This document shows, in pieces, positions 54,614 through 62,269 of a DNA stretch of 64,000 nt. The notes under the pieces are model-generated. The model was not told the origin of the DNA. It ran no database searches and was given only the letters and a program-made list of their open reading frames with translations. The position numbers were made by a program, and so were the translations under genes. The first letter of the stretch is position 1; each line of letters begins with the position of its first letter. Source of the DNA: Alistipes sp. (GTDB lineage Bacteria; Bacteroidota; Bacteroidia; Bacteroidales; Rikenellaceae); assembly GCA_017474235.1 (NCBI GenBank), contig JAFVIB010000002.1:70445-134444 (forward strand). Direction: 5' to 3'.

Positions 54614-56638
54614 ATGGTAACTTTGAACACTTTGAGAACCAAATTTGGCGTACTGCTCTCAGTAATTATTGCGGGCGCACTTTTGGCATTTATCTTCTCT
54701 CTGAAGACAGAGATGGGATTTTCGGGCAATGACCCTGAGGTCGGCTCAATTAATGGCGAGGAGATTCACTACTCTGAGTTCCTTGCTGCTTATGACGATG
54801 TTAAGTCTCAGATGGGTGAGATGACCACCGATGCACAGGCTCAGCAGGCTCTTGCAAATACTTGGCAGATTCTGCTCTCTGAGCGTGTGTTCAACCCTGC
54901 ATTTGAGGGTCTTGGTCTTGCAGTAGGCGAGGCAGAGCACAAGGCAATGGTTCGTGGTGAGGTGGCAAGCAATGTCTTTGGCAGCCTCTTTAGAGATCCA
55001 CAGACCGGCGAGTACAATGTTGAGGCTCTGACATCTTTCCTTGCAGAGGTTGAGAACAATCCACAGGCACAGAAGGCTTGGTCTTTCTTCAGCAAGCAGG
55101 CTGACCTTGACCGTGCGATGACTAAGTATCAGGCTCTTGTTCAGAAGGGTGCTTATGCAAATAAGCTCGAGGTTGAGCGTGGTGTGAAGAGCAGCAACAA
55201 CACCTATAACGGTCGTTATGTTGTAAGCCGTTACAACACCGTTGCAGACTCTCTTATCACTGTTTCTGACACTGAGATTAGAGATTACTATAAGGCTCAC
55301 AAGGCTCAGTACAAGCAGACCCCTTACCGCACAATCTCTTATGTAGAGTTTGAGGTTGTTCCTACCGAGGAGGATAAGGTTGCTGTTGAGGCAGAGGCAA
55401 AGGCAGCAGCAGCTGAGTTTGCTACTGTTCAGGATGTGAAGACCTACGCTCGTGAGAACCGTCACGCAGCAGTTGCTCCTACATATATCACCGCTGCACA
55501 GATGACTGCAGAGGAGAGCGAGGCTCTTGTTAAGGGTAAGATGTACGGTCCTGCTCTCGTCGCAGATGAGTGGCGCGCAGCTCGCGTGGTAGATGTTCGC
55601 AATGTTCCTGAGAAGCTCACTTTGAGCCACATCGTTCTTGACTACTCAGCTACAGAACTCGCTGACAGCCTTGTAAAGGTTGCAAAGAAGGGTGACTTCG
55701 CTGCTTTGGCAGCACAGCACTCTCTTATGGCAGAGACTGCTGCACAGGGTGGTAAGATTGGCGAGGTTACATACTCATCTCTTGCTCCTGAGTTCGCAGA
55801 TGCTCTCGTAGGTAAGAAGAAGGGCGATGTTGTGAAGATCTCTATGGGTAATGTTATCCAAATTGTAAAGGTTGATGCTGTAAACTCTATTCAGAAGCAC
55901 TATAAGGTTGCATCTCTGACATATCCGCTCGTAGCATCACAGCAGACTCAGCGTGATGTTCACAGTGCTGCAAGCCTCTTCGCTGTAAATGCAAAGAATG
56001 ACGGCTTTACTGAGACTGTAAACGCTCAGGGTCAATCTTCTCGCACTGCAACTATCGAGCAGGCTGCTCGCTCAGTGCGCGGTATCGATGCAAGTTCTCT
56101 TGAGGTTGTCTTCTGGGCTAATAAGGCTGAGGAGGGCGATGTTTCAGAGCTTATCAAGCTCGATAACAACCACTATGTAGTTGCTACACTCAACACTATC
56201 AACAATAACGACTATCGCACCGTAAATGAGGTTGCTTCTCAGATTAAGAGTACACTGCTCCGCGATAAGAAGTTCGAGCAGATTGCAGCTAAGATGACCG
56301 GCGCAACTATCGAGGAGATTGCTACAGCAGCTGAGGGTGAGGTTAAGAACTTCGAGAATGTTAAGTTTGATGCTTACTATATCCCTGGTATCGGTGTTGA
56401 ACCACGCATTCTTGGTGCAATCTCTGCACTTGAGCAGGGTGCTGTATCAGCTCCAATTAAGGGTGCAAGCGGCGTATATGTAGTTGTTACCGACGCAGTA
56501 ACCGCTGCTGACGAGGCTCAGACCTTCGAGGCAGAGAAGGTTAAGCAGCAGGCTGAGGCTGAGCAGAATGCAAACCGTGCATTCTATGCAGTTCAGGAGG
56601 CGGCAGAGGTTGTTGATAATACTGTAGGCTACTTCTAA
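54614..56638 (+). CDS. ppiD: PpiD/SurA-N peptidyl-prolyl isomerase chaperone
   Basis: N-terminal TM, SurA N-domain and parvulin-like 'SHIV...FAALAAQHS...GGKIG'. Confidence 0.82.
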   Translation: MVTLNTLRTKFGVLLSVIIAGALLAFIFSLKTEMGFSGNDPEVGSINGEEIHYSEFLAAYDDVKSQMGEMTTDAQAQQALANTWQILLSERVFNPAFEGLGLAVGEAEHKAMVRGEVASNVFGSLFRDPQTGEYNVEALTSFLAEVENNPQAQKAWSFFSKQADLDRAMTKYQALVQKGAYANKLEVERGVKSSNNTYNGRYVVSRYNTVADSLITVSDTEIRDYYKAHKAQYKQTPYRTISYVEFEVVPTEEDKVAVEAEAKAAAAEFATVQDVKTYARENRHAAVAPTYITAAQMTAEESEALVKGKMYGPALVADEWRAARVVDVRNVPEKLTLSHIVLDYSATELADSLVKVAKKGDFAALAAQHSLMAETAAQGGKIGEVTYSSLAPEFADALVGKKKGDVVKISMGNVIQIVKVDAVNSIQKHYKVASLTYPLVASQQTQRDVHSAASLFAVNAKNDGFTETVNAQGQSSRTATIEQAARSVRGIDASSLEVVFWANKAEEGDVSELIKLDNNHYVVATLNTINNNDYRTVNEVASQIKSTLLRDKKFEQIAAKMTGATIEEIATAAEGEVKNFENVKFDAYYIPGIGVEPRILGAISALEQGAVSAPIKGASGVYVVVTDAVTAADEAQTFEAEKVKQQAEAEQNANRAFYAVQEAAEVVDNTVGYF

Positions 56639-56658
56639 ATTTTGGAATTATAAGGCAG

Positions 56659-56869
56659 CATTTGCGCATATAAGAGCGCACCTGCTTCCGCTAACAAAAA
56701 ATGCTGACAATGGCTGTACGCTTTAGTACTATCCATCGTCAGCATTTTTTGCCGAGCGTGGCATCTGCACTCTTCTAAGCACAAATGAGTGCAAGACAGA
56801 GACGGAGTACAATCTCTGACAAAGGGCAGTACCGCAAGTACAGCCCTTCGCTGTTTTATATGCCGAGCC
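56659..56869. repeat. Palindromic element mosaic: full 129-bp unit at 56659-56787 plus core at 56815-56869
   Basis: Outer arms nearly identical to 29661-29788; apical core identical to the 16322 unit; second core GGGCAGTAC-CGCAA-GTACAGCCC...GCCGAGC. Confidence 0.85.
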
Positions 56870-57093
56870 TGATATTTATACTGCGTTAGCAAAGTCCCCC
56901 TCACAGGAGGGGGATTTAGGGGGTGGGTAACACAAAAGGTGGTGGAGGCCGAAGGCCATACCACCACTATATTAAAAGCAAAGCACTCACCTCGATTAAA
57001 GGCAAGTGCTTGCGGAATGTATTAAAAGTCTAATGTGGACTATTTGCTCATATAGCTTTTAATATATTGCACTTTAAGGTATAACTAAATATA

Positions 57094-57555
57094 TTATTCT
57101 ACTTTTCTTCCTTCAAAATAGCAGTTGCTACTATAAGGGTATCGAGTACCATTTGGGGTTGTGCTTAATTGACCTGTTGCTTTGGAAAATATCGTCAAAA
57201 TACCTGCACCAAATAATGCACTATCATAATTTCTTGTTATGTATCCATAACTGTCTGTATTAGTTGTTGAATCCAAATAAAGTTTACCATCAACAAGTCT
57301 TCCTTTGGTTGATATCAACCCACTTAATTTAACTCTATCTTCGTCTATTTGGGTAATTGTGATTGTTCCTTTGTCGTGTATTGTTCCCGAATCGCTACCC
57401 CATACAACATAATCTTCTACTATTACATAGTAAGTTCCCAACAGATCCTCCATGCTTCCAATTTTATGCTTGTCGCCCATCTCATTTTTCTCACAAGAAA
57501 CACCAAAACAGCAACTTATCACAGCAGCTATAAAAAAAGTAAAAATCTTTTTCAT
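57094..57555 (-). CDS. Hypothetical surface lipoprotein (beta-rich, lipocalin-like)
   Basis: Lipobox GVSC followed by EKNE; visibly more AT-rich than the flanking genes. Confidence 0.8.
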   Translation of the reverse strand: MKKIFTFFIAAVISCCFGVSCEKNEMGDKHKIGSMEDLLGTYYVIVEDYVVWGSDSGTIHDKGTITITQIDEDRVKLSGLISTKGRLVDGKLYLDSTTNTDSYGYITRNYDSALFGAGILTIFSKATGQLSTTPNGTRYPYSSNCYFEGRKVE

Positions 57556-57844
57556 AATAATAAAAGTTTATGTACCGTAGCATCTCCTATGCGGTGATTG
57601 TAAAATAAAGAAAGTGTGGAGATGTTCGTTTATCTATTGAGAGGCTCTGTAAGCCTTGTATCAAATAAACAATACTCCACACCTGTATGGTATGGAGTTA
57701 GCACAGAGAGTGCCATATATCACACCAATACAAATAATGTAAGTATTCGTTATCCTCGATACATTTGAAATTTACCAGATTTCTCAATAAGGATTAGCGG
57801 AACACTTTCACTAATAATATGTCCGCAATCCGAGGATTGCACTA

Positions 57845-57852
57845 CAAATTTA
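57845..57852 (-). promoter_or_regulatory. -7 promoter box (TAAATTTG) driving the lipoprotein through a ~280-nt leader
   Basis: CAAATTTA on the + strand. Confidence 0.55.
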
Positions 57853-58010
57853 GAAATTTATTTTGATTGAGCAAGAAATAGTTTAGGGATTATAGGGCTT
57901 ATAGGGTTTATAGTAAATACCTCCATATAATCCCCACCCCTCCATAACCCCTATTGGAGCGTAGCGAGAAGCCCCCTTTACAGAAAGGGGGTTTGGGGGA
58001 TAGGTAACAC

Positions 58011-58078
58011 AAAAAGTGGTGGAATTTTTTCCACCACTATATTAAAAGCAACAAAGGCTTCCCGAAGGAAGCCTTTGT
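58011..58078 (-). terminator. Tandem terminator hairpins downstream of the CoA-transferase
   Basis: ACAAAGGCTTCC-CGAA-GGAAGCCTTTGT (58051-58078) and AGTGGTGGAA-TTTT-TTCCACCACT (58015-58038), the latter with a minus-strand U-tract. Confidence 0.7.
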
Positions 58079-58097
58079 GATTATATGAAGTAATACA

Positions 58098-59405
58098 TTA
58101 CTTCATATAGCTTTTAATATAGTGGTGGTGGCTGCCGTAGCGGTTGAATGCTGCCTCGTCGAGTGCCTCCTGTGCTGATGGGTGAGCAACAGAGATGATA
58201 AGGCGAGCGCGCTCCTGAAGGCTCTTGCCGTAGAGATCTACTGCACCATTCTCGGTAACGAACCAGTGGATGTGGTTACGGGTTGTAACAACACCTGCAC
58301 CCTCAGTAAGAACATCAGAAATCTTTGATACACCCTTATTTGTGATAGATGGCATTGCGATAATTGCCTTACCACCCTTAGAGAGTGATGCACCATAGAT
58401 AAAGTCAATCTGACCACCTACGCCTGAGTAGAACTTACGACCAAGTGAGTCTGCACATACCTGACCTGTAAGATCGACCTGAAGTGCAGAGTTGATAGCA
58501 GTTACGCGGTCGTTCTTTGAGATTACATAAGGGTCGTTTGTATAGCCTACATCCATCATCAGTACGCCAGGGTTGTCATCGATAAAGTCATAAACGCGCT
58601 GTGAACCCATAAGGAAGGTAGAGACCATCTTACCCTTATCGATATTCTTTGCTGCGCCATTGATTACGCCCTTCTCAACGAGTGGAAGTACGCCATCGGC
58701 GAACATCTCGGTATGAACACCGAGGTTCTTGTGGTTGCCCAGCTGTGCAAGCACTGCGTTTGGAATAGCACCGATACCCATCTGAAGAGTTGCACCATCC
58801 TCGATAAGACCTGCGCAGAGATTACCAATCTTTGTCTCAACCTCGTTTGGCTCAGCAAAGTGTGCCTCCTCGAGTGGCTGATCGTCCTCTACAAAGAAGT
58901 TAATCTGTGAGCTGTGAATCATAGCGTCACCAAATGCACGAGGAACATACTTGTTTACCACAGCGATTACATAGTCTGCGCACTCAACAGCTGCAAGTGT
59001 AGCATCTACAGATGTTCCGAGAGATACATAGCCGTGCTTATCGGGTGTAGATACCTGAATCATTGCAACATTACAAGGCACTGCGCCGCTACGATAGAGC
59101 TTCTGAGTCTCGCTCAAGAAGATTGGAATATAGTCTGCATAGCCACTCTGTGTCACCTTACGAACATTTCCGCCCACGAAGAAAGAGTCGAGCTGGAAAA
59201 CGCCCTCAAACTCAGGATCTGCATAAGGTGCAGGACCCTCGGTGTGGAGGTGGTGGATGTGTACATCCTTAAGCTCGCCTGCGCGACCACGCTCGCACAT
59301 AGCCTTAATGAGGCACTGAGGTGCCGATGCTACTGAACTGAGGTGAATATGATCACCTGACTTGATTACCTTTACAGCCTCTTCTGCTGTTACAAATTTA
59401 ATCAT
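58098..59405 (-). CDS. Acetyl-CoA hydrolase/CoA-transferase family (4-hydroxybutyrate/butyrate CoA-transferase-like)
   Basis: LQMGIGAIPNAV, HTEM, SGVGGQIDF and VTENG motifs; 435 aa. Confidence 0.92.
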   Translation of the reverse strand: MIKFVTAEEAVKVIKSGDHIHLSSVASAPQCLIKAMCERGRAGELKDVHIHHLHTEGPAPYADPEFEGVFQLDSFFVGGNVRKVTQSGYADYIPIFLSETQKLYRSGAVPCNVAMIQVSTPDKHGYVSLGTSVDATLAAVECADYVIAVVNKYVPRAFGDAMIHSSQINFFVEDDQPLEEAHFAEPNEVETKIGNLCAGLIEDGATLQMGIGAIPNAVLAQLGNHKNLGVHTEMFADGVLPLVEKGVINGAAKNIDKGKMVSTFLMGSQRVYDFIDDNPGVLMMDVGYTNDPYVISKNDRVTAINSALQVDLTGQVCADSLGRKFYSGVGGQIDFIYGASLSKGGKAIIAMPSITNKGVSKISDVLTEGAGVVTTRNHIHWFVTENGAVDLYGKSLQERARLIISVAHPSAQEALDEAAFNRYGSHHHYIKSYMK

Positions 59406-59608
59406 AGCTCTTAATTATTTTAGTTAGGTTGTTAATATGTTCTTACAGAAGTTATTTGAATTTGTTTGCGAATTTATTTTATAGCTATTTGGTGACTATT
59501 TTTTCGTGTGATTTAAGGCGCATAGGGGTTCCTATGTAACGAAAATCATATGAAAAAATAGTCGTAAACAGCATAAAAGAGAGAGATAAATAAATTTTAA
59601 ACAACTTC

Positions 59609-62269
59609 TTACTTACGCTTTACCTCTACCTGCTCGTAGCCCTCGATGATATCGCCAATTTTGATGTCGTTGTAGGACTCGATATTCAGACCGCAATCGT
59701 GACCTGTCAGTACCTCCTTAACATCATCTTTAAATCGCTTGAGTGAGCCGAGGCGACCTGTGTGGATTACAATACCGTCACGGATGACGCGGATAGGGGT
59801 GTTACGCTGAATCTTACCCTCACGGACAATACCTCCGGCGATAGTTCCCACCTTTGAAATCTTGAAGGTCTCGAGTACCTCGATAGAGCAGACAATCTCC
59901 TCCTTCATCACCGGCTCGAGCATTCCCTCGATAGCGTCCTTAATCTCGTTGATAGCATCATAGATGATAGAGTAGAGGCGAATCTCAATCTCCTCCTTCT
60001 CTGCCAAACGACGGGCTGCTGCTGATGGACGCACCTGGAAGCCGACGATAATCGCATTAGAAGCTGTTGCAAGCAGTACATCGCTCTCCGAAATCTGACC
60101 TACGGCAGAGTGGATAACATTTACCTGTACAGTCTCCTTTGACAGCTTAATCAGTGAGCCTGACATAGCCTCTACAGAGCCGTCAACATCACCCTTAACG
60201 ATAATATTGAGCTCCTTGAACGAGCCGATAGCGATACGGCGACCAATCTCGTCGAGGGTCACATGCTTCTGAGTCATCAGACCCTGCATACGCTGCAACT
60301 GCTCACGCTTATTTGCCACTTCGCGAGCCGAGCGGTCATCCTCCATAACATTGAACGAGTCACCCGCCTGTGGAGCACCGTTAAGACCGAGCAGCTGAAC
60401 AGGTGTTGCAGGTCCTGCTGCGGTAACCTTCTTACCATTCTCGTCAAACATAGCCTTCACACGACCTGTATATGTTCCCGAGAGTACAACATCGCCTACA
60501 CGCAGAGTACCGTCCTGTACAAGCACTGTTGCAACATATCCACGACCCTTGTCGAGTGTAGATTCGATAACAGCACCCTTTGCGCGCTTGTTCGGATTTG
60601 CCTTCAGGTCGAGAAGCTCAGCCTCGAGGAGTACCTTCTCAAGCAGTTTGTCAAGGTTAAGACCCTGCTTCGCAGATACATCCTGACTCTGGTACTTACC
60701 ACCCCAATCCTCAACAAGGTAGTTCATATTTGCCAACTGCTCCTTAATGCGCTCAACATTAGCTGCCGGCTTATCAATCTTATTGATTGCAAATACCATA
60801 GGTACACCCGCTGCCTGTGCGTGGTTGATAGCCTCGATAGTCTGAGGCATCACGCTGTCATCGGCTGCAACGATAATAATAGCCACATCGGTAATCTTTG
60901 CACCACGAGCACGCATAGCGGTAAATGCCTCGTGACCCGGGGTGTCGAGGAAGGTAATCTTCTGACCATTCAACTCAACCGAGTAAGCACCGATGTGCTG
61001 AGTGATACCTCCAGCCTCGCCTGCGATAACATTGGTCTTACGGATATTGTCGAGCAATGAAGTCTTACCGTGATCGACATGACCCATAACTGTTACAATA
61101 GGTGGGCGTGGGAGCAGATCCTCTACATCATCTACCTCGTCATCGCCAATAGCCTCCTGAATCTCTACCGATACAAACTCTGTTGTAAAGCCAAACTCCT
61201 CGGCAACAACTACAAGTGCCTCGGCATCAAGACGCTGGTTGATAGATACCATAAGTCCGAGGTTCATACAAGCCGAGATGACCTCCATAGCAGAGACATT
61301 CATCATCGTTGCAAGCTCACTTACAGTTACAAACTCTGTAACCTTAAGCACCTTGCGCTCCATCTCCTCGCGCTCTACAGCCTCGTTCATACGCTCACGA
61401 ACCTCCTCGCGCTTCTCCTTACGGTATTTTGCACCCTTATTCTTCGCACCCTTGGCAGTCAGACGAGCAAGAGTATCCTTAACCTGCTTTGAAACCTCCT
61501 CGTCAGATACCTCCGGACGAATTATAGGCTTTGGCTGCGGCTTCTGATGCTTCTTCTTGCCGCCACCCTGCTGTTGCTGCTGATTATTGTTGTTGCCACC
61601 ATTCTGCTTATGCTCAGGGCGATTCTTCTTGCCACCGCCCTGCTGCTGTGGCTGCTGACGGGTGATGTCAATCTTCTCCTCCTTAATCTTCTTACGACGC
61701 TTGCCGCCCGGAACCATTCCCGATACATCTATCTTACCCAAAATCTGAGGACCGCTCAGTGTAGGGGTCTCGGTAGCGCGGAAAGCACCATTACTGCTCT
61801 GCTCCTTAACCTCTGTTGCAGGCTTAGGCTGCTGAACAGACTGTGGTTTAGGCTCTGCCTTTGGCTGTGGCTTAGGCTCGGATTTAACAACCGGCTTAGG
61901 CTCCTGCTTTGGCTGCGGCTTGATGACATTTCCCTTCTTGTCAAGCTCTACGCGACCGAGAATACGAGGCTGCTGCACCTCGGTCTTAACCTCGATAGTG
62001 CGCTTTGGCTCCTCTTTTGGCTCCTCGATAGAGATAGTAGCCTGCTTTGTAGAGATCTTCTCGCGAACACTGTCGCGAGCAGATGTAGAGGTGCGATTTG
62101 CACCAAACTCCTTCTCTACCATAGCGTATATATCTCCGCTAATCTGTGTATTAGGTGAGCCGTCAATAGCTACACCCTTCTTGTGCAAAAAGTCCGTTAC
62201 GGTGTTAAGACCTACTTTGAACTCCTTTGCAACTTGTATAAGGCGTAATTTCCTGTTTTCGTTCTCCAT
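59609..62269 (-). CDS. infB: Translation initiation factor IF-2
   Basis: [22 protein letters not shown] and DTPGHEAF motifs; start at the ATG of MENENRK. Confidence 0.99.

Follow-up and report, generated by a model that had tools for sequence, protein, structure and literature searches.

The 64,000-nucleotide (nt) stretch of Alistipes sp. DNA analysed here (GenBank assembly GCA_017474235.1, contig JAFVIB010000002.1, positions 70,445 to 134,444; called the window below, and numbered from its first letter) contains a 1.06-kb segment directly behind the 3' end of a gene for an acetyl-CoA hydrolase/CoA-transferase (CoAT). The segment carries a single lipoprotein gene flanked by two copies of a structured repeat. 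We found that it is one allele of a hypervariable gene-cassette slot located directly 3' of the CoAT gene in gut Alistipes, and that the repeated unit is the terminator module of the CoAT gene. The explanation we favor, with a probability of roughly 0.58, is a cassette slot of the minimal-mobile-element (MME) kind that works by homologous recombination and has structured terminator repeats as its basis. Among gut bacteria Alistipes is a dominant genus, and little is known of how its surface varies. In this slot lipoproteins, BspA-type leucine-rich-repeat (LRR) proteins and other small genes would be swapped between strains and species without any element-encoded machinery, using copies of the terminator of a housekeeping gene as portable homology.

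The repeated unit and the end of the CoA-transferase gene

The two copies of the repeat, A (56892-57069) and B (57969-58128), are about 180 nt long and can be aligned on the minus strand as collinear sequences over about 190 nt with 78% identity. They have in common the 19-mer TCATATAGCTTTTAATATA (57048-57066 and 58103-58121, a spacing of 1055 nt), which has two matches in the window against 0.00 expected from 100 shuffles, and the 21-nt string CCACCACTATATTAAAAGCAA, which is 100% identical at 56961 and 58031. A block around a CCCCC hairpin that includes GGTAACACAAAA is 82% identical over 55 nt (56892-56946 against 57969-58023), and the inverted pair TATATTAAAAGC / GCTTTTAATATA is present in both copies. 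Both lie directly 3' of a minus-strand gene. In copy B the 19-mer is made of the 3'-terminal codons (..HHHYIKSYMK*) of the 435-aa CoAT gene, while copy A starts 25 nt past the stop of the 153-aa open reading frame (ORF) of the cargo. No third copy of the unit was found in the 1.97 Mb of the same genome. A preliminary description of this DNA had named these strings and had seen in them a duplicated gene end that bounds a cassette without an integrase; all of the strings were found where it had placed them, and the 19-mer recurs beyond chance.

Read in the sense of the gene, the unit starts with a coding tail ((CCACCAC)TATATTAAAAGC TATATG.. stop), which is followed by the hairpins H0 and H1, an antitail GCTTTTAATATA(GTGGTGG), a further hairpin (T2) with the U-run TTTTTGTGTTACC, and a mini-palindrome that we call C5. 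The number of inner hairpins per unit is one or two, and the tail half of the long stem is given by the last 6-9 codons of the gene. Since GTGGTGG is common to T2 and the antitail, T2 and the long stem should be mutually exclusive. The predicted RNA fold of copy B is a three-way junction of -74.2 kcal/mol (z = -10.7), and that of copy A has a z of -6.5. Three terminator-like sites fall on the minus strand within the two copies, and the region as a whole has 6 against 1.5 expected.

Evidence on the nature of this fold comes from covariation. We collected 55 CoAT gene ends from the genus, anchored on the invariant part of the antitail, which gave 28 distinct sequences. In this set 94.7% of the cells of the stem are paired and 8 of its 19 pairs show compensatory change, values that were reached by none of 500 shuffles. 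A glycine codon with C, T, G or A as its third base is faced by G, A, C or T in the antitail, so that all four combinations are complementary. This pattern means that the foldback is a selected structure of the gene 3' end and was not made by an insertion. The preliminary description had taken the foldbacks for recombination sites, and this part of it is not supported, the foldback being the gene's own terminator structure. The antitail and stem were not found in more distant species, which have a plain terminator. We also attempted to tell from G-U versus A-C mismatches whether the stem acts as RNA or DNA, but similar numbers of both were present and no verdict was reached. Terminator structures that reach into coding sequence, with a stem that covaries with synonymous positions, constrain gene ends and can seed duplications.

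The C5 element provides a link to other genes. This element, TGTGTTACCTATCCCCCAAACCCCCTTTCTGTAAAGGGGGCTT..CGCTCC, is 95-100% identical between species at many loci, and copies are located directly after the terminators of unrelated genes and of a tRNA (loci L229-L241; here and below, related genomes carry G numbers and loci L numbers). In a survey of 12 other C5 loci, made without a matched control, 7 had tandem copies of the upstream terminator hairpin, together with C5 or beyond it, and in a gene family that ends in ..LIY* an antitail again lies downstream and pairs with the 3'-terminal codons. A duplicated 3' end is thus a feature of [terminator + C5] modules in general in these genomes. 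The two C5 copies of the window's own genome are both at the CoAT locus.

Two observations on the module and its gene can be added here. The 4-nt loop of H1 (58063-58066) is inverted between strains, reading CGAA or TTCG on the plus strand in contigs of the same species and in metagenome contigs, which hints at template switching there. A relative (L112) encodes an identical CoAT protein although its nucleotide identity to window positions 58031-61558 is only about 91%, and the differences within the gene are all synonymous. This points to very strong purifying selection on the protein, and the same nucleotide divergence rules out a horizontal transfer of CoAT itself as the reason for the identical proteins.

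Empty, filled and exchanged alleles of the slot

The related sequences come from public records of Alistipes, mostly metagenome-assembled genomes (MAGs) from the ruminant, pig and human gut. Within the window's own species we compared contigs that encode exactly the window's CoAT protein and are 98-99% identical in the flanks on both sides. Two of them (L108 and L113) are filled like the window, whereas six (L104-L107, L110 and L111) are empty, with the PpiD/SurA-like gene directly adjoining CoAT. The empty allele of L105 consists of copy B up to TTTTGTGTTACC on the left and of the C5 and flank of copy A on the right. This composition puts the boundary at the 12-nt identity TTTTGTGTTACC within the repeats, not at the 19-mer. 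A second species, that of G015, has three different contents between identical CoAT proteins and flanks: a 175-aa ORF, a four-helix-bundle gene with a 616-aa ORF, and a four-helix-bundle gene with a 184-aa ORF. Similarity among these alleles ends just past the C5 hairpin, each has its own right-end motif (described below) and tail variant, and the flank shared by L242 and L244 starts again within H1 of the secondary unit. The crossovers seen lie at several places: in the U-tract, at the C5 hairpin, in H1 of the second unit and at the promoter. An element that enters the gene end at the 19-mer, as proposed in the preliminary description, does not fit these varying points.

One contig of the window species behaves differently. 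L109 is 98.8% identical up to window position 58034 and then continues into genes for a response regulator, LemA and a TPM phosphatase, so the slot is also a synteny breakpoint.

Across the genus, CoAT is followed by PpiD with nothing between (G003 and G022) or by a different gene in almost every species. The cargoes include the lipoprotein family of the window, BspA-type LRR lipoproteins, a GNAT-like protein, a DUF6567 protein and several orphans. Cassettes are 0.9-2.5 kb long and empty units 174-280 nt. They can be stacked: G060 has two cassettes in series and G052 an empty unit followed by a cassette, while cargo-less units are found in G279, G244 and G118, as three perfect 178-nt units in G101, and as two units that lack the right-end motif in G074 and G284. 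Empty sites in the same species, other cargoes in other strains and species, and arrays with several cassettes or with none are what the preliminary description had advised looking for, and since all of these exist, its central idea of a cassette that behaves as mobile without an integrase holds, whereas its reading of the 19-mer and of the foldbacks is not supported. The presence of only two copies in the window's genome would be compatible with a one-off local duplication without mobility, the relic of a single ancient event. However, filled and empty alleles coexist within one species, relatives carry other cargoes and arrays rather than one fixed arrangement, and copy A resembles the gene end of another species (see below), all of which refutes such a relic.

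The cassettes have a recurrent frame. Upstream of the slot the gene order is nusA-infB-CoAT. Most cargoes are preceded by a common promoter string, TAAATTTGTAGTGCAATCC.., and many also by a leader of about 300 nt. The 34-nt promoter string of the window recurs before other cargoes of the slot, and its box TAAATTTG fits the Bacteroidetes -7 consensus TAnnTTTG. The window's leader is 90% identical ahead of a different cargo in G052, and the promoter-leader forms a dispersed family with 70-90% identity across the genus and up to about 20 copies per genome, placed before different genes (many loci in G011, G015, G020 and G052). Similar heptamer blocks to those of the window's spacer stand ahead of cassette promoters in G020, G060, G251 and G315 and also occur at other C5 loci. 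At the other end, the 18-nt right-end motif TTATACCTTAGAGTACAA lies 0-50 nt past the cargo stop and is followed by a further tail and unit, an arrangement that at least 10 unrelated cargoes have in common. Among 301 genomes the motif joined to 8 nt of tail is present in 19, with none in the reversed control, the motif alone in 21, and the tail in 99, about 20 of which have two copies. The possibility that the motif is part of a native 3' untranslated region was rejected, as it was not found in genomes with a single unit. A frame of promoter, leader and right-end motif that is this conserved constitutes a natural expression site, which could be used for inserting genes into these bacteria.

Exchange also reaches across species. 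A GNAT-like cassette in G084, G315 and G119 is 97.7% identical over 171-174 nt, and 100% over the last 100 nt, although the CoAT genes of these genomes share no more than 76-83% identity. The near-identical part extends from the promoter to the right-end motif; it does not begin at the tail, and the primary units beside the gene all differ. The displaced copy A of the window matches the real CoAT 3' end of G118 at 98.1% identity over 107 nt and that of G003 at 90.7%, and in other species true gene ends of the copy A type and of the copy B type are both found. Given that the CoAT genes of the window and G118 are 76.8% identical, the units are best seen as allelic types, and a type that forms the real gene end of one species can be the displaced copy of a second. 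The divergence between the interiors of the two copies, from which the preliminary description had concluded that the event is not very recent, is then a difference between alleles that was misread as age. Recent transfer was rejected as a general account of the cassettes, in that the four-helix-bundle gene and leader segments are about as diverged as the CoAT gene.

How the cassettes may be acquired and exchanged

In the explanation we favor, the starting point is the tandem duplication of terminator modules, which is shown at CoAT and at other genes. Single transcription units lie between the module copies, and each has a promoter, in some cases a leader, a single ORF and the 18-nt right-end motif. 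To judge from the breakpoints, these units would be gained, lost and replaced within and between species by homologous recombination, with the left homology given by the conserved gene, the primary module, C5 or the promoter-leader, and the right homology by the right-end motif and the secondary module. The first duplication may be linked to the structure or to C5, which is a working guess. Several points weigh against this explanation. The left edge of the right-end motif (TTATAC..) is constant behind at least 10 unrelated ORFs that stop 0-50 nt before it, and this keeps a site-specific process alive. Homologous recombination can shuffle cassettes but it cannot create them, thus a defined joining process is still needed. 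Several cargo-less duplications, although independent, have their starting points only a few bases apart, at the 5' foot of the stem. Finally, a crossover of 12 nt is short for RecA.

The joining could be done by site-specific recombination supplied in trans. The right-end motif with the tail and hairpin would then be a site like att or attC for an unlinked recombinase, the units would resemble integron cassettes or cis-mobilizable elements (CIMEs and microCIMEs), and newer cassettes would enter beside the gene and push the old end outward. The arrays of G060 and G052 can indeed be read as successive insertions, and the junction between right-end motif and tail is sharp and conserved behind unrelated cargoes. 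The same GNAT-like cargo precedes secondary units of different types, which diverge within 6-9 nt of the junction, and secondary antitails retain GTGGTGG, which pairs only with the His codons of the gene and so marks them as having once been real gene ends. The sizes match those of classical CIMEs (1.2-13 kb) and of gene-less microCIMEs (130-220 bp; PMC7563491). Despite this, the boundaries observed between strains fall in the U-tract, behind C5 or within H1 and not at the tail, the near-identical GNAT cassettes have no gene-side module in common, the right-end motif is often followed by a shortened tail or by none, and the same pattern of duplication is seen at unrelated genes. The searches described next also yielded neither a tyrosine recombinase near the slot nor a large parent element, and overall we consider this explanation unlikely.

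The 2,512 ORFs of 150 loci around the slot (1.78 Mb) were screened with a profile of six tyrosine-recombinase sequences, which gave no such enzyme beside the slot; serine, HUH, DDE and unlinked enzymes were outside this search. The preliminary description had advised a search for further 19-mer copies next to tyrosine recombinases; the window's own genome has no further copy. The sole profile match is the integrase of an NBU-like integrative and mobilizable element (IME) in G123, which splits an LRR cargo gene and is not at the tail. No large element bounded by tails was found either: among the 99 tail-bearing genomes and 80 loci with 10-kb flanks, tails on one contig are never more than 2.6 kb apart, although breaks of MAG contigs at the slot could hide some. 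Apparent distant tails within the 10-kb flanks were rejected as chance AT-rich matches. The contigs from sequencing runs are short and broken at repeats, and the few junctions seen in them have sides of 20-29 nt and come from other arrangements. That MAG assemblies break at the slot means that part of its diversity is hidden.

Another way to start the process would be a duplication directed by the hairpin or by C5, which would span everything between the 5' foot of the upstream hairpin and the far end of C5 and be produced by template switching or by a single-strand transposase of the REP/IS200 type (REP, repetitive extragenic palindrome), with cargo only trapped in between. This is compatible with the explanation we favor. 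At the 7 of 12 other C5 loci with tandem modules the left boundary is the foot of the hairpin, the ..LIY* family has its own pairing of tail and antitail, the cargo-less units without a right-end motif (G101, G074 and G284) each have a slightly different junction, and the inverted loop of H1 is a mark of template switching. As the primary cause we nevertheless find it improbable. It leaves the right-end motif unexplained, as well as the passage of cassettes from one species to another, no transposase was identified, the C5 survey is small and uncontrolled, and the window's genome has no C5 copies away from this locus. A folded recombination site, made of the right-end motif and the tail/antitail hairpin and served by an unlinked enzyme (tyrosine, HUH-type or the C5 mover), is likewise doubtful in our view. 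If it were real, gut Alistipes would possess an integron-like platform at the 3' end of a highly conserved fermentation gene, where promoter-led genes for surface proteins are captured; the cargo-less units would be empty cassettes, and terminator modules at other genes would be duplicated by this machinery too.

Comparison with known systems places homologous recombination between terminator repeats closest to the MMEs of Neisseria (PMC3898611), which are whole-gene cassettes that differ between strains while the conserved genes around them stay the same. In Alistipes identical anchor genes enclose nothing, one cassette or different cassettes depending on the strain. Scattered breakpoints in shared sequence, with no tyrosine recombinase found in the 150 loci, would fit an uptake by homologous recombination only, but the constant left edge of the right-end motif is not explained by it. 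The Alistipes slot differs in having portable internal homology (the terminator repeats with the last codons, the promoter-leader and the 18-nt motif), of which classical MMEs need none, and in stacking its cassettes into arrays. The CIMEs and microCIMEs at the 3' ends of the streptococcal fda, rpsI and rpmG genes are also integrase-less, flanked by direct repeats and stacked, with gene-less forms of 130-220 bp and cargo units from 1.2 kb (PMC7563491). The slot is like them in its position at the 3' end of a conserved gene, in direct repeats that include the gene end, and in sizes and layout. However, CIMEs are decayed integrative and conjugative elements (ICEs) or IMEs that sit next to a related element with an integrase specific for their att sites, and no such element or integrase was found at the slot, whose breakpoints do not fall on one core.

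Integron arrays, such as those with the Vibrio cholerae repeats as attC sites, are similar in that single-ORF cassettes are each followed by an imperfect palindrome with a variable interior and are stacked beside one fixed site, together with ORF-less cassettes and diverse, mostly unknown cargo. Against this, the profile search of the 150 loci gave no IntI near the slot, and by inspection, with no attC model run, the stem ends CCACCACTATATTAAAAGC / GCTTTTAATATAGTGGTGG have no RYYYAAC/GTTRRRY cores and there is no GTTRRRY at either foot. The slot cassettes each have their own TAnnTTTG box, with terminators between the cassettes and the gene, unlike integron cassettes, which are mostly promoterless and depend on a common promoter. 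The palindrome of the slot is moreover a copy of the terminator of the gene, with a stem that covaries with the coding sequence. C5 and a second repeat, repI, resemble REP, enterobacterial repetitive intergenic consensus (ERIC) and miniature inverted-repeat transposable element (MITE) palindromes in being short, dispersed, hairpin-forming and located just behind genes, but such palindromes explain only parts of the unit and not the duplicated coding tail or the cassettes.

The cargo lipoprotein and further features of the locus

The features of the locus are collected in Table 1.

Table 1. Features of the cassette slot and its flanks, ordered from the CoAT gene to the PpiD/SurA-like gene (window positions)
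Feature	Position	Strand	Basis or remark
CoAT gene, acetyl-CoA hydrolase/CoA-transferase, 435 aa	58098..59405	-	PF02550 + PF13336; conserved, anchors the slot on the left
Copy B core (beta allele)	58031..58128	-	Inverted repeats, RNA fold, covariation
Copy B stem	58110-58128 with 58031-58049	-	Coding tail CCACCAC-TATATTAAAAGC pairs with antitail GCTTTTAATATA-GTGGTGG
Hairpin H0	58082-58109	-	Contains the stop codon; enclosed by copy B stem
Hairpin H1	58051-58078	-	Terminator-like call; enclosed by copy B stem
T2 hairpin (58015-58038) + U-run TTTTTGTGTTACC	58003..58038	-	Terminator-like site
C5b mini-palindrome CCCCCAAACCCCCTTTCTGTAAAGGGGG..CGCTACGCTCC	57952..58002 (mini-element 57952-58013)	-	Copy of dispersed terminator-associated element
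Variable spacer with 7-8-nt repeats (CCCTATAA-like)	57853..57951	-	Upstream of cassette promoter
Cassette promoter box TAAATTTG (57845-57852) + leader of about 285 nt	57556..57852	-	Predicted from consensus and recurrence
Cargo, 153-aa orphan lipoprotein	57094..57555	-	Signal peptide, invariant Cys21, all-beta barrel-like mature domain
Right-end motif (Rend) TTATACCTTAAAGTGCAA	57067..57084	-	Joins cargo to displaced tail
Copy A (alpha allele)	56891..57066	-	Pseudo-tail 57048-57066 (..YIKSYMSK*), alpha hairpins
Copy A antitail	56960-56979	-	
Copy A T2 with TTTTGTGTTACC	56926-56968	-	
C5a	56891..56925 (mini-element 56891-56935)	-	In copy A
repI, unrelated foldback repeat	56650..56850	.	Repeat family of about 125 nt; between copy A and ppiD, outside the cassette
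PpiD/SurA-like gene	54614..56638	+	ORF and Pfam; conserved right anchor in window species

The top NCBIfam matches of the CoAT protein are to butyryl-CoA:acetate and succinate CoA-transferase models, all below the cut-offs. The cargo lipoprotein has no match in Pfam or NCBIfam. Its family comprises 49 homologous clusters, all of them unnamed or labelled hypothetical proteins of Alistipes and mostly found on contigs of about 1 kb that are broken at the flanking repeats; in related genomes the family usually occupies the same CoAT slot. The AlphaFold2 model (predicted local distance difference test, pLDDT, of 86) has nine strands in a barrel-like domain, and a fold search gave weak matches to beta-barrel folds with template modelling (TM) scores of at most 0.39, none of them informative.

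Neither the units nor the leader matched an Rfam family at E <= 1, the one match being a chance microRNA hit in repI. The repI family has seven further copies in the window's genome at 85-93% identity, and the number of repI-type repeats in the spacer between copy A and ppiD varies between strains (L104, L110 and L111). Heptamer blocks such as TTAGGGN followed by the complement NCCCTAA were noted at window positions 57886-57934 and in L088, L075, L230 and L233, where they lie upstream of cassette promoters or, elsewhere, after terminator-C5 units.

Some further observations concern cassettes of other genomes. The four-helix-bundle gene, which has a suffix domain (TIGR04258/TIGR02436) and is read from the opposite strand, recurs in the slot of many species (L040, L074, L076, L083, L243 and L244). 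The NBU-like IME of G123 (L102, G123:C13 1-5700, and L103, G123:C16 1-9800) lies inside a BspA-type cargo gene of the slot and encodes a tyrosine integrase, two helix-turn-helix proteins, primase-like and relaxase-like proteins, a trypsin-like protease and a pair of AAA ATPases. In L224 (G176:C2) and L225 (G209:C60) cassettes with the right-end motif occur without CoAT in about 7 kb of upstream sequence, and only TATATT or only H1 stands behind the motif. Cassettes thus seem to be occasionally relocated or stranded by rearrangement.

In metatranscriptome contigs CoAT is covered throughout and the cargo faintly. More distant homologues of the cargo, at 41% identity (L134-L138), stand beside genes for a PIF1-type helicase, a sigma-70 region-2 protein and an adenylate-kinase-like protein, a setting that may be a mobile element, a phage or a plasmid.

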